From assembly GCA_964557755.1 (NCBI GenBank), contig CAZLBJ010000229.1, positions 1 through 25,175 of the forward strand: DNA of 25,175 nucleotides. Direction: 5' to 3'. The notes below the pieces were generated by a model. That model was not told the DNA's origin, ran no database searches, and was given only the letters and a program-made list of their open reading frames with translations. A program made the translations under genes and the position numbers. This document shows, in pieces, positions 5,171 through 21,838 of the stretch (within the stretch, counting starts at the first letter, position 1; each line of letters begins with the position of its first letter). The DNA is from an uncultured Thermoanaerobaculia bacterium (GTDB lineage Bacteria > Acidobacteriota > Thermoanaerobaculia > Multivoradales > JBCCEF01).

Positions 5171-5213
5171 GCGCCGCCACCGGGCCGAACCCAGGACCGA
5201 CAGGAGCCTGATC

Positions 5214-6164: not shown

Positions 6165-7473
6165 GCGTCCCGCCACCGGCCTGCGCCGCGAAGGCGAGCG
6201 GCTGTGGCCGTTCCTGCGCCGCGAGCTGGCGCCGCGCGGCAAGTGGCTGACCCCGTTCAACGTCGTCTCGCTGGCCATCATGGCGACGGCGGCGGTGATC
6301 CTGGTCGTCCGCTTCACCTTCGGCCTCGGCTCGGTGACCAACCTGTCCCAGGAGTTCCCGTGGGGCATCTGGAAGGGCTTCAACGTCGTCACCGGCGTCG
6401 CCTTCGCCGGCGGTGCCTACGTGCTGACCTTCATGGTCTACGTGCTGCGCATGGAGAAGTACCGGCCCATCGTCCGCGTGACGGTGCTCAACGGCTTCCT
6501 GGCGTACACCTTCTACGCCGTCGCCCTGCTGCTCGAGCTCGGGCGGCCGTGGAAGATCATGAACCCGATCCTCGGCCACGAGTTCGGCCTCACCTCGGTG
6601 CTGTTCCTGATCGCCTGGCACTTCCTGCTCTACATCATCGCGCAGCTCCTGGAGTTCCTGCCGGCGACCGCCGAGTGGCTGAACCTGCGCAAGGTGCACC
6701 GGGCGCTGTCGTGGATGACGGTGGGCACGGTGATCTTCGGCATCACCCTGTCGACGCTGCACCAGTCGGCGCTCGGCGCGCTGTTCCTGATGGCCGAGCC
6801 GAAGATCCACCCGCTGTGGTACTCGGAGCTGATCCCGACGCTGTTCTTCATCTCCAGCATCTTCGCCGGGCTCTCCCTGGTGATCCTGGAGGGGAGCCTG
6901 TCGCACCGGGTGTTCCGCGACCGCATGGGAGCGCCGCTGAAGCGTGGACACGACGACATCCTGGTCGGCCTCGGCCGCATCGCCGGCGCCGCGATGTTCG
7001 TCTACCTCTTCCTCGAGCTGCTCAAGCTCCTGCACGGCGGGTTGCTCGGGCAGATCCAGGGGCCCTGGGGCGCCTGGTACGTGGTCGAGATCGGCGTCTT
7101 CACGGCGATCCCGATGGCGCTCTTCCTGTGGGCGTCGAGCCGCCGCGACCTGCGCTGGATCCAGGTCGGTGCCGGCATGACCCTGGTGGGCATCGTGCTC
7201 AACCGCCTGAACATCTCGCTGATCGCCTTCAAGTGGTACGCGCCGGTGCACTACGTGCCGACGTGGATGGAGGTGGTGGTGGCGGCGGCGGTGATCTGCG
7301 CCGAGGTGTGGGTGTTCCGCTGGGTGATCGAGCGCATGCCGGTGCTCGGCGGCGAGCCCGCGTGGGCCGAGCACCACGAAGCACACGGCCGCGCCGCGGC
7401 CCCGGCCGCGGCACCGCGCGCCGTGCCGCAACCGATCACCGCCCGGTCGACGGCCGGCACGGTGCAGAACTGA
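6148..7473 (+). CDS. NrfD/PsrC-family polytopic membrane protein, HybB/HmcC-like
   Basis: Many hydrophobic helices. Motifs GLGSVTNLSQEFPWGIWKGF, LLELGRPW, STLHQSALG and IHPLWYS. Overlaps the Fe-S gene by 17 nt. Confidence 0.92.
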   Translation: MTTATERPATGLRREGERLWPFLRRELAPRGKWLTPFNVVSLAIMATAAVILVVRFTFGLGSVTNLSQEFPWGIWKGFNVVTGVAFAGGAYVLTFMVYVLRMEKYRPIVRVTVLNGFLAYTFYAVALLLELGRPWKIMNPILGHEFGLTSVLFLIAWHFLLYIIAQLLEFLPATAEWLNLRKVHRALSWMTVGTVIFGITLSTLHQSALGALFLMAEPKIHPLWYSELIPTLFFISSIFAGLSLVILEGSLSHRVFRDRMGAPLKRGHDDILVGLGRIAGAAMFVYLFLELLKLLHGGLLGQIQGPWGAWYVVEIGVFTAIPMALFLWASSRRDLRWIQVGAGMTLVGIVLNRLNISLIAFKWYAPVHYVPTWMEVVVAAAVICAEVWVFRWVIERMPVLGGEPAWAEHHEAHGRAAAPAAAPRAVPQPITARSTAGTVQN

Positions 7474-7483
7474 GGAGGCAGCG

Positions 7484-8239
7484 ATGGACTTCATGGCGAG
7501 CAAGGGCATCGAATACCTGATGGTGATCGGCTACCTGCTGCTCTGCATCCCCTTCTGGCTGCTGCTGCAGCGCTGGACGCGGCCGGCGATGGCGGCGGTG
7601 CCGGCGTGGGTGGGCGACCCGGTGGCGGCGATCCGCGGCTGGTTCGCCGTCCCCGACGGGCCGTCCTACCACCGCGGCCACACCTGGGCCTTGCCGGTTG
7701 CACCGGTGGAAGAGACGCTCGGCGGCGGCACCCGCTTCCGGGTCGGCGTCGACGACTTCGCGCAGCGCCTGCTCGGGCGGCCCGACGGCCTCGAGCTGCC
7801 GCGCGTCGGCGCCCGGCTGAGGGAAGGGGAGGCGGGCTTCCGCTTCCGCCTCGACGGGCGGACGGTGGACCTGCTGAGCCCGGTGGGCGGCAAGGTGGTG
7901 GCGCTCAACCCCGACGTGCTGGCCGATCCCGGCCGGGTGGGCGCCGACCCCTACGGCGGCGGCTGGCTGTTCGAGGTCGAAGCGCCGGCGGCGGCGCTGC
8001 GCAACCTGCTGCCGGCGCGGCTGGCGCGGAGCTGGATGGAGGAGACGGCGGAGGCCTTGAGCGGCCGGCTGTCGGCGGAGCTGGGGCCGGTGCTCCAGGA
8101 CGGTGGCGTGCCGGTCCCCGGCTTCGCCCGCGAGCTGTCGCCGGACCGCTGGCACGAGATCGCCGCCGAGCTCCTCCTCACCGCGCCGCCGCCGGCGGCC
8201 CCCACCGACACGGTCTCCTCGGACGCCGCCCCGCCCTAG
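7484..8239 (+). CDS. Membrane-anchored GcvH-fold protein 3 lacking lipoyl lysine, 251 aa
   Basis: RBS GAGGAGG. N-terminal TM (KGIEYLMVIGYLLLCIPFWLLL). GHTWA...VGVDDFA...LPRVGARLREGE...SPVGGKVVALN...DPYGGGWLFEV. The lipoyl position reads RLDG. Confidence 0.9.
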   Translation: MDFMASKGIEYLMVIGYLLLCIPFWLLLQRWTRPAMAAVPAWVGDPVAAIRGWFAVPDGPSYHRGHTWALPVAPVEETLGGGTRFRVGVDDFAQRLLGRPDGLELPRVGARLREGEAGFRFRLDGRTVDLLSPVGGKVVALNPDVLADPGRVGADPYGGGWLFEVEAPAAALRNLLPARLARSWMEETAEALSGRLSAELGPVLQDGGVPVPGFARELSPDRWHEIAAELLLTAPPPAAPTDTVSSDAAPP

Positions 8240-8271
8240 CACCCCACTGCAGGGCGAGACGGGGCCCCCTC

Positions 8272-8310
8272 GCGGGGGCGGAGCGATCGCGACTCCGCCC
8301 CCGCTCTTTG
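8272..8310 (+). terminator. Intrinsic terminator-like hairpin between convergent genes
   Basis: Perfect 12-bp stem GCGGGGGCGGAG/CTCCGCCCCCGC with a 9-nt loop, followed by TCTTTG. Confidence 0.65.
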
Positions 8311-8312
8311 CG

Positions 8313-9545
8313 TCAGTCCTTCTTGCGCGCCTTCTCGAAGACTTCGGCCATGGAGCCGAGTCCCGCGCCGAGGCGGCCCGCGTCGCCCGCGGCGTGCTCG
8401 GCGACCTCTTCGCGGCCGGCGGTGGCGAGGGAGGTGGCGAGGGAGAGGGAGATGCGGTGGCGCTTGGCGTCGATCTCGAGGACGCGGACCTCGACCTCCT
8501 GGCCGAGGTCGACCACCTCGCGCGGGTGGCCGACGCGGCGGTTGGCGGCCAGCTCCGAGACGTGGACCAGGCCCTCGACGCCGGGCGCGATCTCGACGAA
8601 GGCGCCGAAGGACTCGAGGCGCTTGACCAGGCCGCGGACGGTGGCGCCCGGCTTGAAGCGCTCCTTCACCGCCTCCCACGGGTCGCCGAGCAGGGCGCGG
8701 CGCGACAGCGAGATGCGCTTGCCGCCCTTGTCGCGCTCTTCGATCGCCAGCACCTTGACCTCCAGCACGTCGCCCGCGGTGATCATCGACGCCGGGTCCT
8801 CGACCCGGCCGTGCGTCAGCTCGCTGACGTGCAGCAGGCCCTCGACGCCGCCGAGGTCGACGAAGGCGCCGTAGGCGGTGACGGACGTCACCGTGCCGCG
8901 CACCACGGCGCCGGGCTGGATGCGCGCCAGCGCCTCCTCCTGGCGCTGCCGGCGCTCCTCCTCGAGCAGGTCGCGGCGGCTGAGTACCACGTCCGGGCGG
9001 CCGCCGCGGCCGGCGGCCTCGACTTTGCGCACCCGGAAGGTGAGGTTGCGGCCCACGAACTCCGCCGCGTCCTCGACGAAGGCGATGTCGAGCTGCGAGA
9101 TGGGACAGAAGGCGCGCAGCCCGGAGACGGTGACCGCCACGCCGCCCTTGACCACCTCGGCCACCGTGCCCTCGACCGGGATGCCGTGCTCGTGCGCCTG
9201 CGAGAGCTCCTGGAGGGCGAGCTGCACGTCGCCGCCGGCGCTCGACCCGCCCGGGCGCACGCGCAGCACCAGGCAGCCGCTGTCGGCGTCGCGGCCGCTG
9301 ACCAGCCCCTCCACCGTGTCGCCGACGCCGACCGTGAGGCCGCCGTCGGCGTCGAGCAGCTCGGCGGTGGCCACCACCGCGTCGGACTTGGCGCCGACGT
9401 CGACGAAGGTCTGCTCGTCGCCGATCGAGATCACCCGCCCGGAGGCGCGCTCGCCGGGCTTGGGGTCGGTGCCGGGGGCGTCCTGCCCGCTCTCGAACTC
9501 CGCCAGGATGGCCGCGAAGTCGCGGCTGTCGTCGTTCTTCGCCAT
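8313..9545 (-). CDS. S1 RNA-binding domain protein (four S1 domains; 30S ribosomal protein S1-like, probably a paralogue), 410 aa
   Basis: True start ATG 9545 (MAKNDD) within track ORF 8313..11852. Four S1 repeats, e.g. GAFVDLGGVEGLLHVSEL and GAFVEIAPGVEGLVHVSEL, plus RAFCPISQLD and ISLS. Confidence 0.9.
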   Translation of the reverse strand: MAKNDDSRDFAAILAEFESGQDAPGTDPKPGERASGRVISIGDEQTFVDVGAKSDAVVATAELLDADGGLTVGVGDTVEGLVSGRDADSGCLVLRVRPGGSSAGGDVQLALQELSQAHEHGIPVEGTVAEVVKGGVAVTVSGLRAFCPISQLDIAFVEDAAEFVGRNLTFRVRKVEAAGRGGRPDVVLSRRDLLEEERRQRQEEALARIQPGAVVRGTVTSVTAYGAFVDLGGVEGLLHVSELTHGRVEDPASMITAGDVLEVKVLAIEERDKGGKRISLSRRALLGDPWEAVKERFKPGATVRGLVKRLESFGAFVEIAPGVEGLVHVSELAANRRVGHPREVVDLGQEVEVRVLEIDAKRHRISLSLATSLATAGREEVAEHAAGDAGRLGAGLGSMAEVFEKARKKD

Positions 9546-9590
9546 GGGCCTGCGATCATAGCGCCCCCTGCTACGATGCAGGCGGCCATG
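9543..9590. promoter_or_regulatory. Symmetric bidirectional promoter with back-to-back -10 boxes
   Basis: Minus strand: GCTATGAT-CGCAGGC-CC-ATG(9545). Plus strand: TGCTACGAT-GCAGGC-GGCC-ATG(9588). No RBS on either side. Confidence 0.5.
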
Positions 9591-12581
9591 CCCCCGAAGA
9601 TCCGCGACGTCGCGGCGGTCACCACCTACGAGTCGTTGATGCCGCACCTGGTGCAGCAGGTGCTGCTGGTGGCGAGCGCCTACGACAGCTTCATCCTCGA
9701 GGAGGAGGGGCGCTTCTCCGACCGCCTGCTCGGCCAGTACCTCGAGCTCGACCTCTCCAGCCCGCCGACCTTCCAGCACGTGCCGTCGGCGCGCAAGGCG
9801 CTGCAGCAGCTGCGCCGCGACCCCTACGACCTGGTGGTGACGACGCCGCACATCTCCGACATGTCGCCGCAGCAGCTCGGCGCGGAGATCGCCGACCGCC
9901 ACCCGGGGACGCCGGTGCTGCTGCTGACCTACGACCGCGTCGACGCCCAGTCGTGGGCCGACCGCTGGGCCGAGCGCCGCCAGCCGGAGGGCATCGACAA
10001 CGTCTTCCTGTGGACCGGCGATCCGCGCCTGCTGCTGGCCATGGTGAAGGCGGTGGAGGACCGGAAGAACGTCGACCACGACACGCGCAACGGCCTGGTG
10101 CGGGTGATCATCGTGGTCGAGGACCAGCCGGCGGTCTACTCGTCGTTCCTGCCCATCATCTACTCGGAGCTGCTCGAGCAGATCCGCTCGCTGCTCGCCG
10201 ACCGCCTCAACGAGCGCGACCGCAACTACCGCATGCGCGCGCGGCCGAAGATCCTGCTGGCGCGCTCGTTCGAGGAGGGGCGGTCGCTGCTGCGGCGCTA
10301 CAAGGACTACCTGCTGGGGGTGATCTCCGACGTCCGCTTCCCGCGCCGCGGCCGCCTCGACCCGACGGCCGGCCTCGACTTCATCCAGCTGGTGCGCGAG
10401 CAGGTCCCGGACCTGCCGATCCTGCTCCACTCGCGCGAGCCCGAGCACGCCGCCACCGCCCGCGAGTTGGGGGTGGGCTTCGTCGACAAGAACTCGCCGG
10501 AGCTCTTGGGCGAGCTGCGCACCTTCATGCGCCGCAACTTCGGCTTCGGCCCCTTCGTCTTCCGCGTCGAGGGCGACGAGCAGGCGTACCGCGCCGACAC
10601 CATCCAGGAGATGCTGGAGGTGCTGCGCGAGGTGCCGGCTGCGTCGCTGCTCTACCACGCGTCGCGCAACCACGTCTCCAACTGGCTGATGGCGCGCGGC
10701 GAGTTCCCGCTGGCCATCGAGGTGCGGCCGAAGAAGGTCTCCGACTTCAAGGACGCCGAGGAGCTGCGCCGCTACCTGGTCGAAGTCTTCTCCGACTTCC
10801 TCGAGCAGCGCCAGCGCGGCCAGGTGACCGACTTCCGCGGCCGGCCGGATCCGCTGCGCCGCGACTTCCTGCGCCTCGGCCGCGGCTCGATGGGCGGCAA
10901 GGCGCGCTCGATCGCCTTCATGGCGGCGCTCAAGGCGAAGGACCAGGTGACGGAGCGCTGGCGCGAGGCGTTTCCCGGGGTCAAGGTGATCGTGCCGCGC
11001 ACGGCGGTGATCTGCACCGACGTCTTCGACCGCTTCTGCGCCCGCGGCAACCTGCGCGAGCGGGCGATGGAGGCGGAGACCGACGCCGAGGTGGCGGCGC
11101 TGTTCCTCGCCCAGCCGCTCGACTTCGAGCTCACCGCCGACCTCGCCTCGATCCTGCGCGAGGTGCGCTACCCGCTGGCGGTGCGCTCGTCGAGCCTGCT
11201 CGAGGACTCCGAGTACCAGCCGCTGGCCGGCCTCTACCGCACCTACCTGCTGCCCAACTGCTCGCCGTCGGACGAGGTGCGGCTCGAGCAGCTCTCGCGC
11301 GCCGTGCGCCTGGTCTTCGCGTCGACCTTCTTCCGCGGCCCGCGCACCTGCATGGAGGCGACCTCGCTGCGCATCGAGGAGGAGAAGATGGCGGTGATCG
11401 TCCAGCGCCTGGTGGGCCGGCGCTGGAACAGCCACTTCTACCCCCACTTCGCCGGCGTCGCCCAGTCGCACAACTACTACCCGCTGGGCCACATGCAGCC
11501 GGAGGAGGGGATCGCCACCGTGGCGCTGGGACTGGGCCACGCGGTGGTGGGCGGCGGCGCCGGCCTGCGCTTCAGCCCGCGCCACCCGCAGGTGCTGCCG
11601 CAGATGTCGTCGACCGCCGACGCGCTGCGCAACTCGCAGCGCGAGCTCTACGCGCTCGACCTCGGCGAGCCGGAGGTCGAGGTGGGGCTCGACGACCTCG
11701 GCAACCTCCTGCGCCTCGACCTCGCGGCGGCGGAGGCCGACGGCACGCTCGAGCCGGTGGGCGCCACCTACTCGCCCGACAACGACCGCATCTACGACAG
11801 CGTCCACCGCAAGGGCGTGCGGCTGGTCAACTTCGCGGGCGTCCTCAAGCACGGCCGCTTCCCGCTGGCGCCGCTGCTCGACGAGGTGCTGGAGCTCTGC
11901 CGCCAGGGCATGGGGACGCCGTGCGAGCTGGAGTTCGCGGTGTCGCTGGGCGACGGCGAGACGCCGTCGGAGCTGGCGCTGCTGCAGCTACGGCCGCTGA
12001 TCGCCCAGGGGCGCGACAAGGAGGTGGACCTCGGCCAGGCGGGCGACCGGCCGCGCCTGCTGGCCGGGCCGGCACTCGGCAACGGCGTCATCGGCGACGT
12101 GCGCGACGTCGTCTACGTCCACCCGGACCGCTTCAACACCCGCGACACGCCGGCCCTGGCACAGGCGGTGGCGAGGATGAACGAGCGGCTGGCGGCGCGC
12201 CACCGTCCCTACCTGCTGCTCGGCCCCGGCCGCTGGGGCACCGCCGACCGCTGGCTGGGCGTGCCGGTCTCCTGGAGCCAGGTGTCGGCGGCGCGGGTGA
12301 TCGTCGAGCTGGAGATGCCGGACGGCGGCGTCGACCCCTCCCAGGGCACCCACTTCTTCCACAACATCACCTCCCTGCGCATCGGCTACTTCACCATCGA
12401 CCCCGCGGCCGACGGCCAGCACGTCGACTTCGCCCGCCTGGAGGCCCTGCCGGCCGTCGAGGAGGACGGCCCCCTCCGCCACGTCGAGCTCCCGGAGCCG
12501 GCCGAGGCGTGGATCGACGGACGGAGCGGGCGGGGGGTGGTGGTGGTGGGGGAGGGGAGAGAGGACGATCGGGCGAAGTGA
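9588..12581 (+). CDS. Receiver-domain / PEP-pyruvate-binding (PPDK N-terminal ATP-grasp) protein, about 997 aa (alternative start 9576)
   Basis: Pseudo-receiver, then a receiver (VVED...ISDVRFP...LLHS...FVDK), then PPDK_N-like motifs GSMGGKARSIAF, PLAVRSSSLLED...AGLY, MAVIVQRLVG and ELEFA, with a C-terminal PSQGTHFF motif. Confidence 0.88.
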   Translation: MPPKIRDVAAVTTYESLMPHLVQQVLLVASAYDSFILEEEGRFSDRLLGQYLELDLSSPPTFQHVPSARKALQQLRRDPYDLVVTTPHISDMSPQQLGAEIADRHPGTPVLLLTYDRVDAQSWADRWAERRQPEGIDNVFLWTGDPRLLLAMVKAVEDRKNVDHDTRNGLVRVIIVVEDQPAVYSSFLPIIYSELLEQIRSLLADRLNERDRNYRMRARPKILLARSFEEGRSLLRRYKDYLLGVISDVRFPRRGRLDPTAGLDFIQLVREQVPDLPILLHSREPEHAATARELGVGFVDKNSPELLGELRTFMRRNFGFGPFVFRVEGDEQAYRADTIQEMLEVLREVPAASLLYHASRNHVSNWLMARGEFPLAIEVRPKKVSDFKDAEELRRYLVEVFSDFLEQRQRGQVTDFRGRPDPLRRDFLRLGRGSMGGKARSIAFMAALKAKDQVTERWREAFPGVKVIVPRTAVICTDVFDRFCARGNLRERAMEAETDAEVAALFLAQPLDFELTADLASILREVRYPLAVRSSSLLEDSEYQPLAGLYRTYLLPNCSPSDEVRLEQLSRAVRLVFASTFFRGPRTCMEATSLRIEEEKMAVIVQRLVGRRWNSHFYPHFAGVAQSHNYYPLGHMQPEEGIATVALGLGHAVVGGGAGLRFSPRHPQVLPQMSSTADALRNSQRELYALDLGEPEVEVGLDDLGNLLRLDLAAAEADGTLEPVGATYSPDNDRIYDSVHRKGVRLVNFAGVLKHGRFPLAPLLDEVLELCRQGMGTPCELEFAVSLGDGETPSELALLQLRPLIAQGRDKEVDLGQAGDRPRLLAGPALGNGVIGDVRDVVYVHPDRFNTRDTPALAQAVARMNERLAARHRPYLLLGPGRWGTADRWLGVPVSWSQVSAARVIVELEMPDGGVDPSQGTHFFHNITSLRIGYFTIDPAADGQHVDFARLEALPAVEEDGPLRHVELPEPAEAWIDGRSGRGVVVVGEGREDDRAK

Positions 12582-12662
12582 GCACAGGCGACCCGAGGGC
12601 GCGTAGTCGCGGCCCCGCAGCTCCCATTTGCGCCGCTCACGAGAAGCTCAATTGAACAGTCT

Positions 12663-12995
12663 TTACTCGCGTTCATCCTCGGTCGGAGGAAGAGTTCCAT
12701 GCGGGTAGTCGTTCTCATTTGAATAATAATAGACGCAAGCCGTATCGGTGCCGTCCGCTGATTGCAGTTCCGAGATCTCGTCGGCTGCGATATCGGGAGG
12801 CTCGTCGCTGGCGTTCCATATTTCGCTCAAGAAGTACTGATCAGAGAGAAGCTTCGTCCGAGCCAGTTCTCCAGCTTCGTCGGTGCTTCTCGCGTCGACT
12901 ACCCGCCAAGTGTAGGCACCTCCAGTTGTGATGTTCCCATCCTGGTTTAACAGTTTTAGGTCTTGCGCATGTAGCAGCACTGCGAATCTGGTCAT
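12663..12995 (-). CDS. Hypothetical acidic protein, possible orphan immunity protein (110 aa)
   Basis: ATG-started ORF in the low-GC tract downstream of the Rhs gene, on the same strand. Role is inferred from position only. Confidence 0.6.
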   Translation of the reverse strand: MTRFAVLLHAQDLKLLNQDGNITTGGAYTWRVVDARSTDEAGELARTKLLSDQYFLSEIWNASDEPPDIAADEISELQSADGTDTACVYYYSNENDYPHGTLPPTEDERE

Positions 12996-13028
12996 TGGTT
13001 GTGATCCATGGGCCAGTCGGCGGCAGAC

Positions 13029-13346
13029 CTAACCTTCCCGCGGTGGCTCGGGCATCTCAAGAGCGGTCAGGTCCTCGATGTCGACATCCGGCAGCTTCGC
13101 GTATTCCGTCGAGATCAGCCGCTCAAGGGGCTTCCGCAGCTCCTTGAGATGGTGTACCAAGTGAGAGTACAGCTCCACTTGGAGCTCGACCAGTGCATCG
13201 GATGCAACATCCGGCGCATTTCCAAATTGCCGATCGAGCTTCGCGAGGTGCGATCGAATGTGGTCGGCTGCCTCCAGGACGCCCTCAAGGTGGAAGGCGA
13301 CGGCACTCGACGGATCCTTTTGTCGGAGTTGTCGGAAGAAACTCAT
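13029..13346 (-). CDS. Hypothetical alpha-helical protein, possible orphan immunity protein (105 aa)
   Basis: ATG 13346 (MSFFRQL) preferred over the TTG at 13400. Low GC, co-oriented with the Rhs gene. Confidence 0.55.
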   Translation of the reverse strand: MSFFRQLRQKDPSSAVAFHLEGVLEAADHIRSHLAKLDRQFGNAPDVASDALVELQVELYSHLVHHLKELRKPLERLISTEYAKLPDVDIEDLTALEMPEPPREG

Positions 13347-13396
13347 ACCTCCACCCCCGCTCTCTTGGCAAGCTCTTGTGGAATGGGTAGGTCCGT

Positions 13397-13819
13397 TCAA
13401 AGGACCCGAAACGGACCTTCTGTTTCAAGCACCCGCCGAGTCTGTTCATGCTTCTTTTCCGTGAAGCCACCGAAGTGCTCGTAAGAGGGCTCACAGGCCA
13501 TGAGGACGACATCCCACGCAATGTCGTAGGTATCCTCATTGTCGAGAAGGATTCGCACGAGGTTACGATCGAACTCATCTACCACGGAACACTCGACAAT
13601 AGAGGTAGGAGCAGGGGCTGCCGAATCGCGAGGAGCGATTCGCGTCTCCTCCCCCTTCGAGTCCTCGTACCACCCGAGGATCACCTTCAGTGGAACGATG
13701 TACTGCGCTCCAGAATCGTAGCCGAACTGAACGCTCGTTCCGTTCTCGATGGCTGCTGCGTAGTTGAAGCGTGTGTATCCACGCTCAACGATGTCTTCGT
13801 CCTCAATCATCTCAGGCAT
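13397..13819 (-). CDS. Hypothetical protein, possible orphan immunity protein (140 aa)
   Basis: RBS AGGAG 6 nt before the ATG. Low GC. Immediately follows the Rhs relic. Confidence 0.65.
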   Translation of the reverse strand: MPEMIEDEDIVERGYTRFNYAAAIENGTSVQFGYDSGAQYIVPLKVILGWYEDSKGEETRIAPRDSAAPAPTSIVECSVVDEFDRNLVRILLDNEDTYDIAWDVVLMACEPSYEHFGGFTEKKHEQTRRVLETEGPFRVL

Positions 13820-13879
13820 TTCAACTCCTGGGTTACGCGCCCGGGACAGCCGCTTGCTCGGCAGTCGTCCTCATCGTCA

Positions 13880-14095
13880 GCCGTCGTAGCGGGGTAGGTG
13901 CCGCTCGACCAGGTGCTGCTGTCGCCGGTGGTCCTTAGCGCCGCCGGCCGCGCCATCGCCGAGGCCTCCAGCGACTGGTGGTCGACGACGCCGTTGCCGT
14001 GAGTGACGTCGGAGTACATCCCGTTGGGGTGGGCGGTGGCCAGCCACGTCCCCTACGAGGACCAGGCCCCAAATCGACCGCTGGGCGACGGTCAC
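13880..14095 (-). pseudogene. Degenerate mosaic fragment of an Rhs gene
   Basis: 13880-14047 aligns to 15933-16107 at about 90% (47-nt identical run, 9-nt deletion, 2-nt insertion). 14062-14095 aligns to 18587-18620 (25/34 nt; VTVAQRSIWGL vs MTPAQRSIWVL). Confidence 0.85.
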
Positions 14096-14110
14096 AGTCC
14101 TTTCATACGA

Positions 14111-14563
14111 CTACGTCTCCGTGCTTACCCGGCAATCCATGAGTCCTGGAGGGCTAGAGAGCAGCCTCTCTGCTTCCGCTCCATTTGCGTGGAACTCGAA
14201 CACGCCATCTTTATCTCTATCTAGCTCCAGCACCAACTCTCCCGAAGCGTCATAACGCCAATGGATATCCATAGTGCCGTTGCACTCGGAAGATTCCCAT
14301 CCTTCAACGTACCGACCATGCCAGTCCGAGAACTCTCCGGCCTCCGGTAGTCGGAACTTGCCGTCTGGTCGACCGTCACGATTTGCATCAATCCGGACAG
14401 TGCTGAGCCTACCCCATCGGTACTCATTGGTGATGAGTCCGAGCTCAGAGTGATCTTGTCGAGAGGTACGAAACATGTAACCTGCAAGTGCCACTAGGAA
14501 CAGCCCGAGCACAGACAGCGCTATCAATACGTTCTGTTTCGATGGCTTACTAAGGGCCATCAT
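14111..14563 (-). CDS. Putative cognate immunity protein, N-terminal membrane anchor, DxxxDG repeats (150 aa)
   Basis: Start ATGATG overlaps the last 11-14 nt of the Rhs gene. TM segment VLIALSVLGLFLVALAGYMF. Motifs IDANRDGRPD and LDRDKDGVFE. Low GC like the toxin tip. Confidence 0.75.
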   Translation of the reverse strand: MMALSKPSKQNVLIALSVLGLFLVALAGYMFRTSRQDHSELGLITNEYRWGRLSTVRIDANRDGRPDGKFRLPEAGEFSDWHGRYVEGWESSECNGTMDIHWRYDASGELVLELDRDKDGVFEFHANGAEAERLLSSPPGLMDCRVSTET

Positions 14564-17500
14564 TGAGAACCTCGCGCAGACTCGCTGCGTCTTCGTCAGA
14601 GAAGCTACGTACGTGGTCTCCAAGATCTTCTGCCGAGACCGGGGACTCCATCACAGTTCCCGGGGCTGCCTGATTCTCTATCGGGTTCATCAGCGAGCCG
14701 ACGGGAGCGGCGTCACCGCTGTATTTCTGGAGTGCGCCCGTAGCGTGTCCGACTTCGTGGGATGTCGCGTTGACTAGGAAGTTCATCGTAGAGCTGTCTC
14801 CATCCGGTGCTTTGGCGGTCGAGACTGTGACCCGGTCAAGACTTCGTATTCCGAAAGCTCCCTGGGCGATCGCTTTATCTTTCACCTTTACGTCGACCTT
14901 GCGATCTGATGCCTTCATCATCTTCGGCTCACCAGAGCCCTCGCTATCAAAGCTCATTACCTTGTCTACTCCGGCCGCCCTAAAAACCTCCTGAACGCCA
15001 ATCTGCAACGCCGTTCTCTGATTCTGAGTGAGGCCGGACTGTGAATAGTCATAGACTATGAACAAATCCTTGCCGTTGGGGTCGGTGAATTTGAGTGGAT
15101 TTCCTGCGACATATCCGTACCGATTGTAGCGCAGAGGCGAATCGAGCGCCGTTCGGCGATTGAGTGGGTCGATGGTCAAGTACCGCCCGTGCAACGGGTT
15201 GTAGTACCGAGCATGGTGGTAATCGAGATCATCCCCCGGCCCCGAGCTGTAGAAATCCCGCTCGTGCCCGGTGAACTTCATCGTCTCGGTGTCCTGCCCC
15301 CAGTACGTCGCCTCTTCGCCATAGGGGAAGTAGGCGTGGTAGGCCATCTGGTTTCCGAACTGGTTGGTGATCAGGCGCGGGGTGCCGAGGTGGTCGAGGT
15401 GGTAGTGGTAGGTGGTGTTGGGGCTGGGCTTGACGGCGGCGAGCAGCTTGCCGTCGGCGTAGACGTAGTCGCGTTCGACGCTCCAGCCCGAGGGGCCGGC
15501 GCGGTAGTCGCGCAGGACCTTGCCGTCGAGGTCGCGGAGCGTCCAGCGCGAGCCGGTCCAGTGGTAGCTCCACAGCCGCTCGTCGTCGGCGGTGTAGAAG
15601 AACAGCCACTCGCCGCCGCCGGAGTCGATGCGCTTTTTCACCATCCCCATGGCATCGTACTCGAAGCCGGTGCCGTTCCAGGAGGTGACGTTGCCGGCCG
15701 AGTCGTAGCCGGCGGTGGTGAGCCGGTTGTTCGCCGGGCTGACCGGGATCGAGCGACCGGCGGGGCCGGAGAGGGCCTGGATGTTGGTCAGGTTGGCGAA
15801 GGCGTCGTAGGTGTAGGCGCGGGTGTAGGTCGAGCCGCCGCCGGTCTGGCCGGTCTTCGTGGTCGCCCGGGTCAGCCTCGACACCCCATCGTAGGCGTAG
15901 TTGGCGGTGCCGATGGCGGCGACGTTGCCGGCGCCGTCGAAGCGGTAGGTGCCGCTCGACCAGTTGCTGCTCGCACCCGTGGTCCACAGCGCCGCCGGCC
16001 GCGCCATCGCCGAGGCCTCCAGCGACTGGTGGTCCGCGACGCCGTTGCCGTGGGTGACCTGGGAGTACATCCCGTTTGGATGGTAGCTGAAGGCGGTGGC
16101 CAACCACTGGCCCGTCGTCAGGTCCTGGACCGAGGCGAGGTAGCCGCGGTGGCTGGTGTTGAAGTTGTGCTGGACGCGCCGCGGCGACTGTGCCGTGCAG
16201 CCGGCGTTGGTGCACTCGGGGTAGTCGACGTAGTTGAGGTTGCCGAGGTCGCGCCAGGCGAAGCCCTGGGTGAAGCTGTCGGTCGGTGCGTCGTTGACCC
16301 ACAGCTGGGTGTCGCGCTTGGACACCGCGCCGCCGAGGCCGGCGTAGGTGTAGGTCTCGCGCGCCTGGACCTTGAACGAGTTGCCGTTGAGCACCACGTA
16401 GTGGTAGCGGTCGGCGGTCCACAGCTTGCCGCCGCGCAGGTCCGAGCCCGAGCTCCACGGCGCGTAGGTGAAGGTCTTGACCCGCCGGGTGGAGCCGCCG
16501 GCCAGCTCGTCGACCGCGGCCAGCCGCCCGGCGCGGTCGTAGGCGTAGCGCACGTCGAACGGACCGTCGAGCTTCCTGCCGGCGTTGCCCAGCGCGTCGT
16601 AGCTCAGGTAGCTGACGGTGCCGTTGCCGGAGGCGCCCTTCTCCGGGTGCTGCTCGGAGGTGAGGAAGCCGCGTTTGTCGTAGGTGAAGGTGCGCGTCTG
16701 GGTGGTGCCGTTGGAGGTCGAGGCCTGGCGCAGGCGGTTGCCGACGTCGTAGAGGTAGGTCGTCGTCACGCTCGCGCCGCCGGCGCCCGAGGGCTCGGCG
16801 ACCTTGTGGAGCCGGCCGTGCTTGTCGTAGGTCTCGACCACCTGGTAGCCGGTCTCGTAGGCGCTCGACGGACATCCCGCCGTCGACGAGCAGACGGTGT
16901 AGGCGCGCGTCGTCTGCCGCTCGCCGGCGTACCACAGCAAGATCTTGTGGCCGTTCGGGTCGTCCGGCGGCTCGATGCGCCCCGGCCGGCCGAAGGGGTC
17001 GTAGTTCTTGTACATCGTGAGCTTGCTCGGCCAGCCGAGCTGGCGCTCGGACGTCGAGTGCGTCCAGCCCATGGAATTGACCACGGTGTCCACCGTCGAC
17101 CACGAGCCGGAGGGCTCGAGCCGCTGGTCGCGCCAGAAGCGCCCGAACGGGTCGAACACCGCCTTGGCCTGGGTGAGCACCACCGAGCCGATGTTGTTGT
17201 GCTGGCGGATCAAGACCTCCGCCGGCGAGCTCGCCGACGTCGCCCGGTTGTAGGTGTAGGTGGTGCGCGCCCCGGCGCCGCTCTGCGGGATCTCGGCGGT
17301 GCGCCGGCCCGAGCTGTCGTAGGTCAGCGTCACGGTCAGGCCGTCGGCGCCGGTGACGGTCTTGGGCAGGCCGGTGGCCTGGTCCACCGTCGACTGGTAG
17401 GTCCACAGGACGTGGGCGCCCGTGCCGGTGAGCCAGCGCGAGCTCGACAGGGTGCCGTACTGGAAGGCGCTCTCGCGCCGGTAGCCGTCGCCGGACAGCG

Positions 17501-19538
17501 CCATGCCGCACAGGTCCGAGGTGGTGGAGATCGGGCCGGTGTCACCGCCGTAGTGGCGCTCGCGGAAGACGTTGCCGTTGCCGTCGCGCTCGTACCAGCG
17601 CACGACGTCCGTCGTCGAGCGCGTGGACGTGCGCAGGACGCGCTCGCGCAGCAGCGCGCCGGTGGCGGCGTCGAAGCAGTGGTACTGCCGGGCCGTGTCG
17701 GTGCCCTCGGTCTGGCTGCGCTCGGAGTAGGTGCCGAGCACCCAGGAGGCCGGGGCGCCGAGGTAGCCGCCGGAGACGGTGTTGGTGACCGCGTCGACGT
17801 TGTAGGCGCCGTTGCCGGCGTTGAAGTCGGTGAGCTCGGTGCGGCTCGCGCCGCCGGTCCAGCTCGCGTTCGTCGTCCGGTTCCGGTAGTGGCCGAGGCC
17901 GTCGAAGCCCGAGGAGTCCTCGCTGCGCCAGGCGCTGGCGTCGTCCGCGTAGAAGGTCTTGCGGCTCGCCGGCCGGCGGTTGAGGTTCTCCCACTGGTCG
18001 GGCAGGACGTGGCTGCCGTTGATGCGGTCGCGCTCATAGCGCACGTAGACCCGGCGGCGGAGGTTGGCCGGCGACTCGGCGCCGGCGTAGATCTCCTGCG
18101 ACAGGAAGCGGCCCTCGTGGCTCGCCCGCGTGGTGAACGGCAGCCCGTACTGCCAGCCGTCCCAGGTCGATGGGTTGCCGCGCCAGTGGACGTCGAAGTA
18201 GAAGCGGCTCTGGTCGCCGCTCGGGTAGGTCACCAGGGTCGAGTGCTCGAAGGCGGCCCAGTTGCTCGACGGCGTGTAGGTCCACTCGCAGCCGACCTGG
18301 CCGAAGGAAAAGCAGCCGCCCGAGCTGTTGAGCATGCGCTTGCGGCGCACCCCCGTCGACAGCGCCGCCGACAGCGTCCCCGCTCCCTGCGAACCGCCGA
18401 CGACGCGGGTCGGGAAGCTGTAGTCGCGGTACGTCCACTCGTAGGCGCCCAGGGTCGGGAGCTTCAGGGTCTTCAGCACCCCCGGCTGGTTCTCCGCCGC
18501 TGAGAGATCGGCCCCGCTGCCCTCGCTGCACGTCCCGTAGTAGCTCGGCATCGCCCACGTCGAGCTATCCGGCAGCGTGACGTCCGCCAGCACCCAGATC
18601 GACCGCTGCGCCGGCGTCATCACCCCGTCCAGGTCGTCCAGCGTGTCGAGGTCGTCGTCGTCGTAGCAGCTCTCGTCGATCGTCTTCGGCCAGTAGTGGA
18701 ATTGGTAGGTCGCCGTGCCGCCGCCGATCGCTGCCAGCACCGCGCGGTCGACCACCTTCCAGGTCGTGCCGTCGATCGTCTTGTTTGTGAAGTAGAGATC
18801 GTGGCTGCGGTGGGCGTCGGCGAAGCGCCAGTGCAGGCTGGAGACCTGGGTGATCGTCAGCCGGTTGCCGAAGGCGTCCTCGATCCACTCCGGCCGGAAC
18901 TTCGACGACCAGTGGTTGACGTCGCGGCGAAAGCTGCGCGTCGAGCCGTCCGGGAAGTCGACCTCGAACTCGGTGCCGCTGAGCTTGCGCAGCCGCAGGT
19001 AGGAGCCGTCGCGGGTGAACGCACGGTCGGAGACCGGCGTCTCGTAGTTGTGCAGCGTGTCGTAGAAGGCGTGATGCGAGCCGTCCTCGCCGAGGTAGGC
19101 CCAGCGGCCGCCGGGGTTGTCCGGGTCCACGGCGTCCATGAGCTCGCCCAGCGACACCTTCCAGCCCGGGCTGGCGTTGTAGGTGCGGTCGAGCAGCGCC
19201 ACCTTCGAGGTCACCAGCTCGTAGTTGCCGTCGGGCCCGTATTTCCTCCACGTCCGCTGCTCGAAGCGCCAGACGTTGGAGTTGTAGGTCAGCGTCAGGT
19301 TGTAGGCGAGGTTGCCGTTGGCCGAGTAGCCCGGACCCAGCGGCAGGGCCAGGGTTAGGTTGCCGTTGAACAGGTTCACCGCGTCGACCTCGCCGAACTG
19401 GTAGAGCTTCTCGGCCGAGAAGCCGCGGGCGACGTCGGGGTTCTCCTGCGCCAGGGCGGGAGTAGAAGAGATGGCGGCGGCGAGCAGCGTCGCCGCGGAC
19501 AGCAGGAAGGGGAGCGAACGGACGAAGCGCGCGCGCAT
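14550..19538 (-). CDS. Rhs/YD-repeat polymorphic toxin with Sec signal peptide and C-terminal zinc metallopeptidase (HExxH) domain, 1662 aa
   Basis: Signal peptide MRARFVRSLPFLLSAATLLAAAISSTPALA. YD repeats (YDKHGRL, YDKRGFL, YDRAGRL, YDGVSRL). Rhs core HLDHLGTPR...FTGHERD...ARYY...YVAGNPLKFTDPNG, followed by a 173-aa tip with HEVGH. Confidence 0.95.
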   Translation of the reverse strand: MRARFVRSLPFLLSAATLLAAAISSTPALAQENPDVARGFSAEKLYQFGEVDAVNLFNGNLTLALPLGPGYSANGNLAYNLTLTYNSNVWRFEQRTWRKYGPDGNYELVTSKVALLDRTYNASPGWKVSLGELMDAVDPDNPGGRWAYLGEDGSHHAFYDTLHNYETPVSDRAFTRDGSYLRLRKLSGTEFEVDFPDGSTRSFRRDVNHWSSKFRPEWIEDAFGNRLTITQVSSLHWRFADAHRSHDLYFTNKTIDGTTWKVVDRAVLAAIGGGTATYQFHYWPKTIDESCYDDDDLDTLDDLDGVMTPAQRSIWVLADVTLPDSSTWAMPSYYGTCSEGSGADLSAAENQPGVLKTLKLPTLGAYEWTYRDYSFPTRVVGGSQGAGTLSAALSTGVRRKRMLNSSGGCFSFGQVGCEWTYTPSSNWAAFEHSTLVTYPSGDQSRFYFDVHWRGNPSTWDGWQYGLPFTTRASHEGRFLSQEIYAGAESPANLRRRVYVRYERDRINGSHVLPDQWENLNRRPASRKTFYADDASAWRSEDSSGFDGLGHYRNRTTNASWTGGASRTELTDFNAGNGAYNVDAVTNTVSGGYLGAPASWVLGTYSERSQTEGTDTARQYHCFDAATGALLRERVLRTSTRSTTDVVRWYERDGNGNVFRERHYGGDTGPISTTSDLCGMALSGDGYRRESAFQYGTLSSSRWLTGTGAHVLWTYQSTVDQATGLPKTVTGADGLTVTLTYDSSGRRTAEIPQSGAGARTTYTYNRATSASSPAEVLIRQHNNIGSVVLTQAKAVFDPFGRFWRDQRLEPSGSWSTVDTVVNSMGWTHSTSERQLGWPSKLTMYKNYDPFGRPGRIEPPDDPNGHKILLWYAGERQTTRAYTVCSSTAGCPSSAYETGYQVVETYDKHGRLHKVAEPSGAGGASVTTTYLYDVGNRLRQASTSNGTTQTRTFTYDKRGFLTSEQHPEKGASGNGTVSYLSYDALGNAGRKLDGPFDVRYAYDRAGRLAAVDELAGGSTRRVKTFTYAPWSSGSDLRGGKLWTADRYHYVVLNGNSFKVQARETYTYAGLGGAVSKRDTQLWVNDAPTDSFTQGFAWRDLGNLNYVDYPECTNAGCTAQSPRRVQHNFNTSHRGYLASVQDLTTGQWLATAFSYHPNGMYSQVTHGNGVADHQSLEASAMARPAALWTTGASSNWSSGTYRFDGAGNVAAIGTANYAYDGVSRLTRATTKTGQTGGGSTYTRAYTYDAFANLTNIQALSGPAGRSIPVSPANNRLTTAGYDSAGNVTSWNGTGFEYDAMGMVKKRIDSGGGEWLFFYTADDERLWSYHWTGSRWTLRDLDGKVLRDYRAGPSGWSVERDYVYADGKLLAAVKPSPNTTYHYHLDHLGTPRLITNQFGNQMAYHAYFPYGEEATYWGQDTETMKFTGHERDFYSSGPGDDLDYHHARYYNPLHGRYLTIDPLNRRTALDSPLRYNRYGYVAGNPLKFTDPNGKDLFIVYDYSQSGLTQNQRTALQIGVQEVFRAAGVDKVMSFDSEGSGEPKMMKASDRKVDVKVKDKAIAQGAFGIRSLDRVTVSTAKAPDGDSSTMNFLVNATSHEVGHATGALQKYSGDAAPVGSLMNPIENQAAPGTVMESPVSAEDLGDHVRSFSDEDAASLREVLNDGP

Positions 19539-19541
19539 CGC

Positions 19542-20291
19542 TCAGACCTCCCCGCCGGCGTCACCGGCGCCGTCGTCGCCGCTCTCGGGCGCGTCGGCCA
19601 GCCGCTTCGCGTACACCACCAGCGTCTGCGGGTCGACGCCGACCAGCACGTCCTTCGACCGCAGCCGCTCGGGCGCCGGGCCGCTGTCGCCCAGCGCCAG
19701 CAAGCGCGTGACGTCCAGGGAGATGCGCGAGTCCGCCGCGCCGTCGGCGTCGAGGCCGCCGCCGTCGCCCAGCGCGATGCCCCAGAAGCCCACCCCCGCC
19801 TCGCCGTCCGGCCCGCTCGCCGGCCGCACCAGCAGCAGGTCGAGGAACCGCCCCTCGTGCGCCAGGAACCGCGCGTTGGCCCCCAGCCCCTGCGCCGGCA
19901 GCTCGATCCGCTCGAGCTCGTGACCCTCCGGCGCGCCCAGGGCGTACTCGCCGGTCGCGAGATCGACCACCGCCCACACCGAATGGACCATCAGCGGCTC
20001 GCCGATCTCCCAGCGCACCGCCCCTTCGGCGTCCGCCTCGAGTCGGTTCTCGATGCGCAGCGTCCGCGGGATCGCCCGCTGCCGGTCGCGGCCGAGGCCG
20101 AACACCACCACCTCGCCCTCCGGCGTCGCGCCGGAGACCAGGACCGCCGACTCCTCGAAGGCCAGCGCGGGCTCCACCTCCGGTGCCGCGGGAGCCTCGC
20201 CGGGCGCCTGGGCGCCGGCCGGCGAGGCGGCCAGGATCATGAGACAGAACACGGTGGACACACCCATGAATCGGGGGGAGAACGGCGACAT
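19542..20291 (-). CDS. Secreted hypothetical protein, putative Rhs accessory factor (249 aa)
   Basis: RBS GGAGG and signal peptide ending AGA-Q. Stop lies 3 nt before the Rhs ATG. Contains the acidic loop GDGGGLDADGAAD. Confidence 0.8.
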   Translation of the reverse strand: MSPFSPRFMGVSTVFCLMILAASPAGAQAPGEAPAAPEVEPALAFEESAVLVSGATPEGEVVVFGLGRDRQRAIPRTLRIENRLEADAEGAVRWEIGEPLMVHSVWAVVDLATGEYALGAPEGHELERIELPAQGLGANARFLAHEGRFLDLLLVRPASGPDGEAGVGFWGIALGDGGGLDADGAADSRISLDVTRLLALGDSGPAPERLRSKDVLVGVDPQTLVVYAKRLADAPESGDDGAGDAGGEV

Positions 20292-20424
20292 GAAGGAACC
20301 TCCACAGCTCGCCGGGCATCACAGCAGCACTGCACGCTCCGGCCGGGTTTACGACGTGGCGGAGGGCGTCGCCCGCCGCCGGTTTCGCAGCTCCTTCCAG
20401 CATGAGCTGCGTGAATGAGCGCGC

Positions 20425-20453
20425 TTTATATCGACCTTTGTGCACCAGGTCAA
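20425..20453 (-). promoter_or_regulatory. Sigma-70-type promoter for the accessory-Rhs-immunity operon
   Basis: TTGACC (20453-20448), N17, TATAAA (20430-20425) on the minus strand. Confidence 0.65.
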
Positions 20454-20659
20454 TCCCCGAAATACGAAACCGCCGGCTCGCTTTTCGCGCACCGGCTCAG
20501 CCGCGGTTCAGGATCGGCAGGTTGACGGGGTGGGCGCCGGCTGGCAGGCGGCGGGCTCCTGGTATGCTCGGCGGCGTCCGCGGCCCCGGTCCCGGGGCCG
20601 CTTTCCCACGCCATGCGCGTCGAACCATCCACCGGTGCCGCCGGGAGGGGACTGCCGTC

Positions 20660-21838
20660 ATGAAGACCGATCGGAAGCGTTACGTCATCGCCGGTGCGGG
20701 GGGCATCGGCACCGCCGCCGGGGTGCTGCTCGCCGTCGTCGGCCGCGAGGACTGCGACCTGGTGCTGTGGGACGCCGACCCCGCCGCGCTCAAGCGCGCC
20801 CACGACCGCCTGCCGCGCGACGGCCGGGTGCGCTCGGTGGAGGCGCTGGAGGTGCCGCGCGGCGAGGTGCCGGAGGCGTTGACGCGCACGCTGGCGGCGG
20901 CCGACATCGTGCTCGACTGCATGCCCGGGGCCGCCGCGCCGTTCGTCGCCCGCCTCGCCCTCGACCACCGCCTGCATTACGTCAACCTCACGGAGCACGT
21001 CGCCGAGACGAACCAGATCCTGGAGATGGCGCGCGGCGCGGAGACCGGCTTCGCGCTGCAGACCGGCCTGGCGCCCGGCTTCGTCAACGTCGTCGCGCTG
21101 CGCCTGTTCCACGACTTCTGCCGCGACTTCGGCGTCGACACCGTGGAGCGCATCAAGATGCGCGTCGGCGCCCTCACCTTGCACGCCCAGGCGCCGCACT
21201 TCTACGCCTTCACCTGGAGCCCGTCCGGAGTGGCCACCGAGTACCTCGAGCCGGCGGTCGTGGTGCGCGGCTTCGAGCGCACCACGCGGCCGTCGCTGAC
21301 CGAGCGCGAGACGCTGATCATCGGTGGGGTTCCCTACGAGGAGGACCTCACTTCCGGCGGCGCCGCCGACCTGCCCGACGCCCTGGCAGGCCGCGTCCGC
21401 GACCTCGATTACAAGACGCTGCGCTACCCGGGGCACTACGCCTGGGTGGCGGCGCAGGTGGCGGCGCTCGGGGCGGGCGAGGGGGGCGGGGAGAAGGACG
21501 GCGGCGCGGCGCACGGCAACGGCCGCGTGCGCGCCCTCCAGGAGGTCATGGAGCGCGAGATCCCGCGCTGCGAGGAGGACCGGGTGGTGGTCTACGCCTC
21601 GGTGCAGGGGCGCGACGAGCGCGGCGTGCCGCGGCTGCGCGAGGAGGTCCACCACGTGCTGCCGGTCGAGCTCGGCGGCGTGCGCCTGCGCGCCATCCAG
21701 ACCTCCACCGCGGCGCCGCTGGTGGAGGTCGCCCACATGCTGCTCGCCGGCGGCTACCGCGGGCCGGTGCTGCAGAGCCGCATCGACCCGTACGACTTCC
21801 TCGGCGGCCGCTTCGTCTCCCGCATCTACGGCACCTGA
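20660..21838 (+). CDS. Saccharopine dehydrogenase family oxidoreductase (lysine 6-dehydrogenase-like), 392 aa
   Basis: ATG 20660 with RBS GGGAGGGG. Rossmann motif VIAGAGGIG, plus TGLAPG, FTWSPSGVATEY and YKTLRYPGH. Confidence 0.88.
   Translation: MKTDRKRYVIAGAGGIGTAAGVLLAVVGREDCDLVLWDADPAALKRAHDRLPRDGRVRSVEALEVPRGEVPEALTRTLAAADIVLDCMPGAAAPFVARLALDHRLHYVNLTEHVAETNQILEMARGAETGFALQTGLAPGFVNVVALRLFHDFCRDFGVDTVERIKMRVGALTLHAQAPHFYAFTWSPSGVATEYLEPAVVVRGFERTTRPSLTERETLIIGGVPYEEDLTSGGAADLPDALAGRVRDLDYKTLRYPGHYAWVAAQVAALGAGEGGGEKDGGAAHGNGRVRALQEVMEREIPRCEEDRVVVYASVQGRDERGVPRLREEVHHVLPVELGGVRLRAIQTSTAAPLVEVAHMLLAGGYRGPVLQSRIDPYDFLGGRFVSRIYGT

Follow-up and report, generated by a model that had tools for sequence, protein, structure and literature searches.

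A stretch of 25,175 nucleotides (nt) from an uncultured Thermoanaerobaculia bacterium of the Acidobacteriota (assembly GCA_964557755.1, contig CAZLBJ010000229.1; hereafter the window) encoded an Rhs toxin with its own secretion signal, preceded by a gene for a secreted protein of 249 amino acids (aa), here termed the accessory protein, and followed by a gene for a small candidate immunity protein (Table 1). In 26 of 27 informative loci from related genomes, a homologue of the window Rhs lay directly downstream of the accessory gene on the same strand, a linkage far above chance. In sequence comparison, accessory and Rhs show the pattern of a unit whose parts are passed on, duplicated and diversified jointly. 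We tentatively favour, with a confidence slightly short of even, the reading that the accessory protein binds the Rhs cocoon in the periplasm, caps or assembles it and stays with it, the three genes being a chromosomal polymorphic-toxin operon. A preliminary description of this DNA had called the accessory protein a dedicated secreted partner of an Rhs toxin with no recognisable delivery machine nearby; both statements hold and could be extended to the whole family.

The scan of one genome per GTDB species yielded 22 accessory loci, all in metagenome-assembled genomes of Acidobacteriota and most of them in Thermoanaerobaculia; a single genome had as many as three copies. Homologues also place the host of the window, most likely, among the diderms of the Acidobacteriota. 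Six metagenomic contigs brought the set to 28 distinct loci (numbered with the prefix L), one of which was uninformative, its contig ending at the accessory gene. The neighbourhood check suggested in the preliminary description, whether accessory homologues lie beside signal-peptide Rhs genes, was thereby answered in favour of the linkage. Order, strand and coupling of the two genes were kept down to approximately 28–35% identity, and alignments of the partner Rhs proteins to that of the window began near its residue 30, right behind the signal peptide. When the open reading frames (ORFs) within 10 kb on either side of the 26 loci were clustered all against all, accessory and Rhs were the only two conserved families. 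Where genes were called, the distance from the accessory stop to the Rhs start ranged from an overlap of 1–4 nt to a gap of 10 nt; the exception, an overlap of 44 nt in L002, was an uncertain call. The gap in the window was 3 nt, with a GGAGG motif 5' of the Rhs ATG. Starting from Rhs homologues instead, the accessory gene was found upstream in two of three further loci (L032 and L034). Pairwise identities of accessory and Rhs proteins were correlated (r = 0.92, 105 pairs; r = 0.56 without close pairs), and paralogous modules in one genome had diverged jointly, with 44% identity between the accessory proteins and 38% between the Rhs proteins.

Several loci showed peculiarities of their own. 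Accessory and Rhs ORFs of the window were in one frame, parted only by TGA and one codon (GCG; positions 19538–19544). Read-through or an ancestral accessory–Rhs fusion was considered and dropped, since relatives showed other frames and overlaps, and the shared frame is probably a coincidence. In L018 (9980–20620) the accessory–Rhs module was tandemly duplicated, the copies being 100% and 99.8% identical over the compared region; because of this identity the pair was uninformative about cognate specificity. Three near-identical metagenomic contigs (L007, L008 and L009) carried the same accessory gene; the Rhs gene was in two pieces in L007 and L008, and two minus-strand genes lay between the accessory gene and the Rhs remainder in L009, which suggests an insertion or rearrangement. 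In L032 and L033 (3993–9537) the accessory gene was followed by an Rhs gene interrupted near residue 497, identically in the two assemblies, representing either a pseudogene or a real split. This Rhs carried an Ntox28 toxin, had a HEAT-repeat immunity candidate downstream and sat among polyketide synthase and nonribosomal peptide synthetase genes. Another member of the Rhs clade (L035, 6001–10131, and L036; 29% identity) had a signal peptide and an HPNLARG motif, with integrase and IS91-type transposase genes nearby.

Signal peptides were judged by direct reading (charged n-region, hydrophobic core of approximately 15 residues, A-x-A↓Q, the arrow marking the predicted cleavage site). Read in this way, the accessory protein had the features of a Sec class I signal, namely a positive n-region, a hydrophobic core and an A-x-A cleavage motif. 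An N-terminal hydrophobic signal was present in 73 of 78 sampled family members and a lipobox in none. Neither Pfam nor NCBIfam matched the window protein, and no Pfam family matched any of the 78 members. A word-indexed search retrieved 13 close relatives, and a profile built from these and run against 1.84 billion representatives hit 1670 clusters (50% identity) at E ≤ 1e-3, including 1397 at E ≤ 1e-10. The best 150 of the 1670 clusters were all stand-alone proteins of 165–270 aa.

AlphaFold2 modelled the accessory protein confidently (predicted local distance difference test, pLDDT, 82; predicted template modelling score, pTM, 0.76) as an all-beta fold made up of two sandwich domains, located at approximately aa 41–120 and 140–232. 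Foldseek searches of the PDB and BFVD returned only generic beta-sandwich matches, with E-values of 1e-3 or weaker and low TM-scores, such as complement and alpha-2-macroglobulin MG domains, FN3 tandems, RbmA and antibody Fabs. Considered as a candidate detached FN-plug/TTR module, the accessory protein had a tandem beta-sandwich fold, and no chain of a teneurin or teneurin-like protein (TLP) was among the top 50 Foldseek matches. The accessory profile searched against PDB sequences gave spurious armadillo-repeat matches only. An invariant loop, DGGxxDxDG (aa 176–184, with D176, G177, D181 and D183), may be a calcium site. In L031 (34–1950), a distant accessory-like domain (28% identity) was fused to at least three Calx-beta domains, the N-terminus of the protein being cut off by the start of the contig.

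The Rhs protein matched the Pfam family RHS_repeat (PF05593, E 1e-11) and showed the features of its family, with cocoon-forming YD repeats and a core of the form PxxxxDPxG followed by locus-variable sequence. Its N-terminus was a class I Sec signal without a lipobox (MRARFVRS, LPFLLSAATLLAAAI, SSTPALA↓QE), and all partner Rhs proteins had an equivalent hydrophobic leader ending in A-x-A↓Q. A few relatives carried R-R in the n-region and may be exported by the twin-arginine (Tat) pathway. The mature N-terminus was conserved, with the clade consensus Q-x-HPN-x-ARGF...D-x-VNLFNGNL. Despite their conservation, the first 20 mature residues had low confidence in the model (pLDDT 29 and 53), as a segment in need of a partner would have, and they are a candidate partner-binding or sorting segment.

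Behind this segment the protein was nearly unbroken beta-hairpin. The AlphaFold2 model of aa 31–1100 (pLDDT 84, pTM 0.80) formed a continuous shell that began, by secondary structure, at mature residue 20–30, and by the same criterion no plug, propeller or adaptor preceded it. Foldseek matched the model to solved Rhs, teneurin and Tc shells with E-values of 1e-30 to 1e-15. The best E-values were for Rhs cores of type VI secretion systems (T6SS), teneurins and a bacterial TLP, and the best superposition was with TcdB2-TccC3 (6h6g; query TM-score 0.58). By sequence, the whole Rhs had no match in the PDB, the likeness being found by the fold search. The expectation that no known secretion adaptor would be present at the Rhs N-terminus was borne out: searches of Pfam, NCBIfam and PDB sequences gave no match there, and the cocoon followed directly on the signal peptide. 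The preliminary description had further counted ten cysteines with close pairs (GCFSFGQVGC, CSSTAGC and CTNAGC), and this was exactly right (residues 291, 337, 409, 417, 621, 677, 883, 889, 1109 and 1114). Of 20 aligned homologues, 19 had a cysteine at both C621 and C677, and in none did one of the two occur without the other, which agrees with a conserved disulfide and with folding in a compartment other than the cytoplasm. The signal peptides on both proteins, together with these co-conserved paired cysteines, would place accessory and Rhs in one compartment.

Two tightly coupled genes whose products share a compartment could also encode a toxin and its chaperone. The accessory protein would then attend the unfolded Rhs or its N-terminal segment transiently in the periplasm, assist the closure of the cocoon around the toxin and be released thereafter, with the conserved, poorly modelled segment as its handle. 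Pilus chaperones have the same general layout, being periplasmic proteins of approximately 22 kDa with two Ig-like domains, and T6SS Rhs toxins also need dedicated chaperones, those of the Eag family. We consider a transient chaperone somewhat unlikely. No PapD_N, PapD_C or other chaperone family was matched in the 78 sampled members, and no PapD-like structure was among the top 50 Foldseek matches. Each module had its own accessory protein, which diverged along with its Rhs, a pattern to be expected of a specific partner and still compatible with a specific chaperone. The invariant DGGxxDxDG loop, like the fusion to Calx-beta domains, suggests surroundings outside the cell that are rich in calcium.

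Further evidence on the particle came from relatives in which the cocoon was split. Among 16 full-length loci, five (L010, L022, L027, L028 and L030) had a large gene without the core motif and a second gene behind it, often with a 4-nt overlap. This second gene encoded 555–650 aa in the four loci where it was complete, the contig of L030 ending inside it. Its product, the C-like protein, had its own signal peptide and comprised the end of the shell together with the Rhs core and the toxin. The large, B-like proteins aligned to aa 12–1190 of the window Rhs, and the C-like proteins of L010, L022, L027 and L028 aligned to aa 1172 or 1192 to 1490. Because the two kinds of protein align on either side of residue ~1190, the window Rhs is, by these alignments, a two-part cocoon in fused form, its joint lying near that residue. 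The C-like proteins carried an extra 45–170 aa behind the signal peptide without a family match; a likeness of this extension to subtilisin propeptides (I9) was considered and dropped, Pfam being blank. The B-like proteins of the split loci were longer by 360–715 aa, which contained Ig_7/Ig_3, fn3, PA14 and four N_BRCA1_IG domains, all typical of extracellular binding; these adhesion tails suggest that the particle acts outside the cell. A full-text literature search turned up neither the accessory family nor a split cocoon of the Sec type; absence there is not proof, and both appear to be new.

The adhesion tails also bear on what the accessory protein might do beyond the periplasm. It could be an export or display factor that moves or tethers the cocoon at the outer membrane of the producer, or a subunit that binds a receptor on the target. 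Some observations speak for such a role: the tails place the particle outside the cell, an accessory-like domain is fused to adhesin-type Calx-beta repeats in L031, and no other conserved neighbour would be fit for the job. At the level of the operon, the role would compare with that of SitB for SitA in Myxococcus or of MafA for MafB in Neisseria. The operon mafA-mafB-mafI has the same gene order (PMC4436062). We nevertheless regard this role as unlikely. The accessory protein was predicted to be a soluble sandwich, with no lipobox in the 78 members and no predicted beta-barrel or amphipathic anchor, and thus without an evident means of membrane attachment. In the relatives with tails the adhesion domains sit on the Rhs itself and the accessory protein is kept anyway, so that receptor binding is not obviously its job.

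We return to the accessory protein as a cap or assembly subunit of the cocoon and set out how the system might work. The three genes would be co-transcribed and translationally coupled, and Rhs and accessory would each pass Sec unfolded and lose their signal peptides. In the oxidising periplasm, Rhs would fold into a TcB-TcC-type cocoon stabilised by disulfides and cleave itself at the DPNG core, with the metallopeptidase toxin enclosed. The accessory protein would be its cognate, stoichiometric partner, bound most plausibly at the conserved mature N-terminus or at the N-terminal opening of the shell, where the Rhs itself provides neither plug nor propeller. It would be retained on the exported particle, either capping it or serving as a subunit in its assembly. 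The membrane-anchored immunity protein would guard the envelope of the producer and its kin, and the target of the window toxin would be periplasmic. Outer-membrane passage and entry into the target would depend on functions encoded elsewhere, on vesicles or on lysis.

Several points weigh against this reading. Co-divergence is also expected from the plain co-inheritance of neighbouring genes and is no proof of contact. In Foldseek searches the accessory protein had no specific likeness to a known plug, the teneurin FN-plug or a PapD-type chaperone. No candidate for the outer-membrane step was found, and for a type II secretin such a folded cocoon would be a bulky substrate. The Rhs clade member of L035 and L036 had no accessory gene within 6 kb upstream, and no Rhs gene was near the accessory-like domain of L031. 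The last two cases could mean that there is no functional partnership at all, the first gene being, for instance, a leader with a coupling or regulatory function, or one for a secreted protein of no relation that is carried along in a mobile Rhs module. This is quite improbable. The linkage, with order, strand and coupling, held to low identity in all but one informative locus, the accessory protein was well conserved, confidently folded and had invariant residues, and its family was large, with uniform lengths among the best 150 of the 1670 clusters.

A more far-reaching form of the cap role is unlikely. The accessory protein and cocoon might be a self-contained "mini-Tc" particle with a delivery route of its own, in which the accessory protein is a gatekeeper that seals the N-terminal opening and sets the toxin free once a target is touched. 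The gatekeeper job of TcA, of the TcB propeller or of the T6SS spike would then be done by a 22-kDa protein, and Rhs delivery independent of any secretion machine would be widespread in Acidobacteriota. As for the distinct two-protein export or delivery route advanced in the preliminary description, the data establish co-inheritance and tight coupling, and the route, like the complex, the passage across the outer membrane and the delivery, is still hypothetical. How cocoon toxins leave the cell and enter a target without a T6SS or TcA is a question on which this locus gives a handle, through a small, soluble and well-folded partner, through natural fused and split cocoons, and through forms with and without adhesion tails. 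If the complex forms, it could reveal how an Rhs cocoon that lacks a plug in its own chain is shut and opened. The family lies in a phylum that dominates soils and has hardly been studied for antagonism.

Rhs toxins with a signal peptide alone, which the preliminary description associated with Gram-positives, had been reported from Gram-negative bacteria before. RHS was listed among the "T2SS/Sec-dependent" toxins (T2SS, type II secretion system) "in all bacteria", with "-" as the entry for signature neighbouring genes (Zhang et al. 2012, PMC3482391), and Sec-targeted teneurin-like YD-shell toxins of Gram-negative and Gram-positive bacteria were described from six phyla including Myxococcota and Acidobacteriota (Raoelijaona et al. 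2026, PMC13018210). According to the latter authors the delivery mechanism of TLPs is unknown, with "no obvious delivery machinery". The present system resembles these TLPs in its Sec-targeted YD shell, polymorphic C-termini and immunity genes, and in occurring in Acidobacteriota. Both also have beta-sandwich domains upstream of the shell; the sole such module here was a separate protein, and it had no specific similarity to teneurin structures. The FN-plug and NHL propeller are part of the TLP chain, and the window Rhs had no NHL or fn3 match. Gram-negative TLPs are predicted lipoproteins, whereas the signals in the window were of class I.

In architecture the closest system is the BC component of the toxin complex (Tc), but without TcA, without a propeller and with a Sec signal on every subunit. 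As in TcdB2-TccC3 and YenB-YenC, a YD cocoon encloses a C-terminal toxin that is released at the Rhs-associated core; separate B and C polypeptides, as in Tc, were found in the five split loci, and the window has the fused form. The earlier statement that no TcB module is present was correct by sequence, the window Rhs having no SpvB, TcdB_toxin_midN or FG-GAP match in Pfam and its model no separate propeller, but it did not hold for the architecture, which resembles that of a fused TcB-TcC cocoon and has split relatives. Unlike in Tc loci, a gene for TcA (the injection subunit of ~2500 aa) was absent from the window and from 10 kb on either side of the 26 loci. Tc subunits have no Sec signals and leave the cell by a lysis-type system (PMC13018210), and the immunity genes and nuclease toxins of the present family point to bacterial targets, unlike Tc.

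In operon logic the closest system is mafA-mafB-mafI of Neisseria, which likewise encodes a secreted accessory protein, a signal-peptide polymorphic toxin and an immunity protein, and whose secretion route is unknown, vesicles having been proposed (PMC4436062). The likeness is one of gene order only, since there was no sequence relationship, MafB has a DUF1020 domain and no cocoon, and MafA is an adhesin. WapA of Bacillus subtilis shares the signal peptide as sole trafficking signal, the RHS repeats, the core, the variable toxin and the downstream immunity gene (PMC4436062), but it is anchored to the wall of a one-membrane bacterium and has no dedicated upstream partner. The T6SS Rhs effectors (RhsA, Tse5, RhsP and Tse15) have in common with the window Rhs the YD cocoon, the core and dedicated small helper proteins. 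They differ in being cytoplasmic, in carrying an internal plug at the N-terminus as well as a PAAR, VgrG-binding or clade domain, and in using cytoplasmic Eag/DUF1795 helpers; these features were absent from the Rhs and the window genes in Pfam and NCBIfam searches and from the conserved neighbours of the 26 loci. The shell of the window Rhs was approximately 40% longer than those of T6SS Rhs effectors.

The toxin domain at the C-terminus of the window Rhs had no PDB match and a weak match to Reprolysin_2 (E 0.015). Four homologues were found, all at the ends of RHS proteins. In these and the window domain, the two histidines of the HExxH motif and the downstream motif residues were invariant, and the glutamate was present in four of the five. 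Judged by the HExxH motif alone, the toxin is probably a zinc metallopeptidase. C-terminal domains varied by locus, one of them being the nuclease Tox-REase-7, which has a cytoplasmic target, and the small genes behind the Rhs genes of relatives varied by locus as well. Neither Pfam nor NCBIfam had a family match for the 150-aa ORF behind the window Rhs. By its position, which is that of the immunity gene in other polymorphic toxin loci, it presumably encodes the immunity protein; its DxDxDG-like motifs, typical of exported proteins, may be a faint hint of export.

Homology between the window Rhs and its closest relative (L001, 74% identity) ended exactly at the end of the core, and the GC content dropped from ~0.70 to 0.58 across a region comprising toxin, immunity gene and the next 2 kb. 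Behind the immunity gene lay a relic of the Rhs B/C junction with 85% nt identity to the intact Rhs over 177 nt, 84% aa identity to it in tblastn and 77% identity to the junction of L001. It was followed by an orphan immunity-like ORF that matched the C-terminal part of the gene after the L001 Rhs (L001 13444–14436) with 25% identity (E 2e-7, pairwise). Relic and orphan gene fit the classical model of C-terminal displacement, in which an incoming cassette of junction, core, toxin and immunity gene shifts the older end downstream. The low-GC island as a whole (12600–15100; 0.56–0.60 as against ~0.72 elsewhere) contained the toxin, the immunity gene and three more minus-strand ORFs, of which those at 13029–13400 and 12663–12995 had no match.

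The order of the three genes on the minus strand was accessory, Rhs and immunity candidate, the last of which, from its ATG at 14563, overlapped the Rhs gene by 14 nt. The ORFs and frames of this arrangement, with signal peptides on both accessory and Rhs, were as the preliminary description had them. The gene upstream of the accessory gene (20402–21838, plus strand, saccharopine-dehydrogenase-like) is divergent, and the operon must therefore begin at the accessory gene. The putative promoter listed in Table 1 was read by eye; the consensus promoter scan had passed over it, the final base of its second hexamer being A.

Table 1. Position of the operon genes, their parts and adjacent features in the window
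Feature	Positions	Strand	Basis or remark
Promoter-like TTGACC - 17 nt - TATAAA	20425..20453	-	By-eye reading; putative
Accessory gene, 249-aa secreted tandem beta-sandwich, unnamed family	19542..20291	-	ORF, AlphaFold2, homologues
Accessory signal peptide, aa 1-27	20211..20291	-	...LMILAASPAGA↓QAP, without lipobox
Rhs/YD toxin gene, 1662 aa	14550..19538	-	Pfam, NCBIfam
Rhs signal peptide, aa 1-30	19449..19538	-	Direct reading; A-L-A↓Q, no twin arginine
Conserved mature Rhs N-terminus	19329..19448	-	27 loci, alignment; Q-E-N-P-D-V-A-R-G-F ... G-E-V-D-A-V-N-L-F-N-G-N-L
B-like cocoon part, aa 31 to ~1189	15972..19448	-	Continuous YD-repeat beta-shell
C-like cocoon part, aa ~1190-1489	15072..15971	-	Alignment to separate C-like proteins
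Rhs-associated core, aa 1403-1489	15072..15332	-	TIGR03696, E 4e-13; ends GNPLKFTDPNG↓KD
Variable C-terminal toxin domain, aa 1490-1662	14553..15071	-	173 aa; HEVGH motif
Immunity candidate, 150 aa	14111..14563	-	Sequence reading; N-terminal membrane anchor, DxDxDG-like motifs
Relic of Rhs B/C junction, codons ~1145-1202	13880..14047	-	Downstream of immunity gene
Orphan immunity-like gene, 140 aa	13397..13819	-	Candidate; low-GC island

The G+C content of the window was 72%, and third-position GC was used to tell real genes from spurious long ORFs. In Pfam, all the remaining credible genes came out as regulators or as redox or metabolic enzymes, namely a sigma-54 activator, a histidine kinase, the saccharopine-dehydrogenase-like protein, a DUF4785 protein, an Fe-S assembly protein, a protein with receiver and PPDK_N domains, and two GCV_H-like proteins flanking a Fer4/NrfD pair. 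A Pfam scan of all these other genes detected no PAAR, VgrG, DUF1795/Eag, WXG100, TcA or SpvB in the window, and the Pfam and NCBIfam scans agree with the earlier statement that PAAR, VgrG, EagR, WXG and TcA modules are missing there.

Two neighbouring regions on the plus strand were unusual in themselves. The long frame at 8103–12581 probably has its true gene start near 9600 and encodes a receiver fused to PPDK_N (phosphoenolpyruvate-utilising, ATP-binding); its upstream half and the antisense ORFs look like GC-driven artefacts. At 4394–8239 lay a cluster of four genes, the first and last of which encoded GCV_H-like proteins (258 and 251 aa, respectively) and the second and third a 4Fe-4S dicluster protein and an NrfD-type membrane protein, a non-standard arrangement of lipoyl-carrier-like proteins around a membrane quinol-type redox module.

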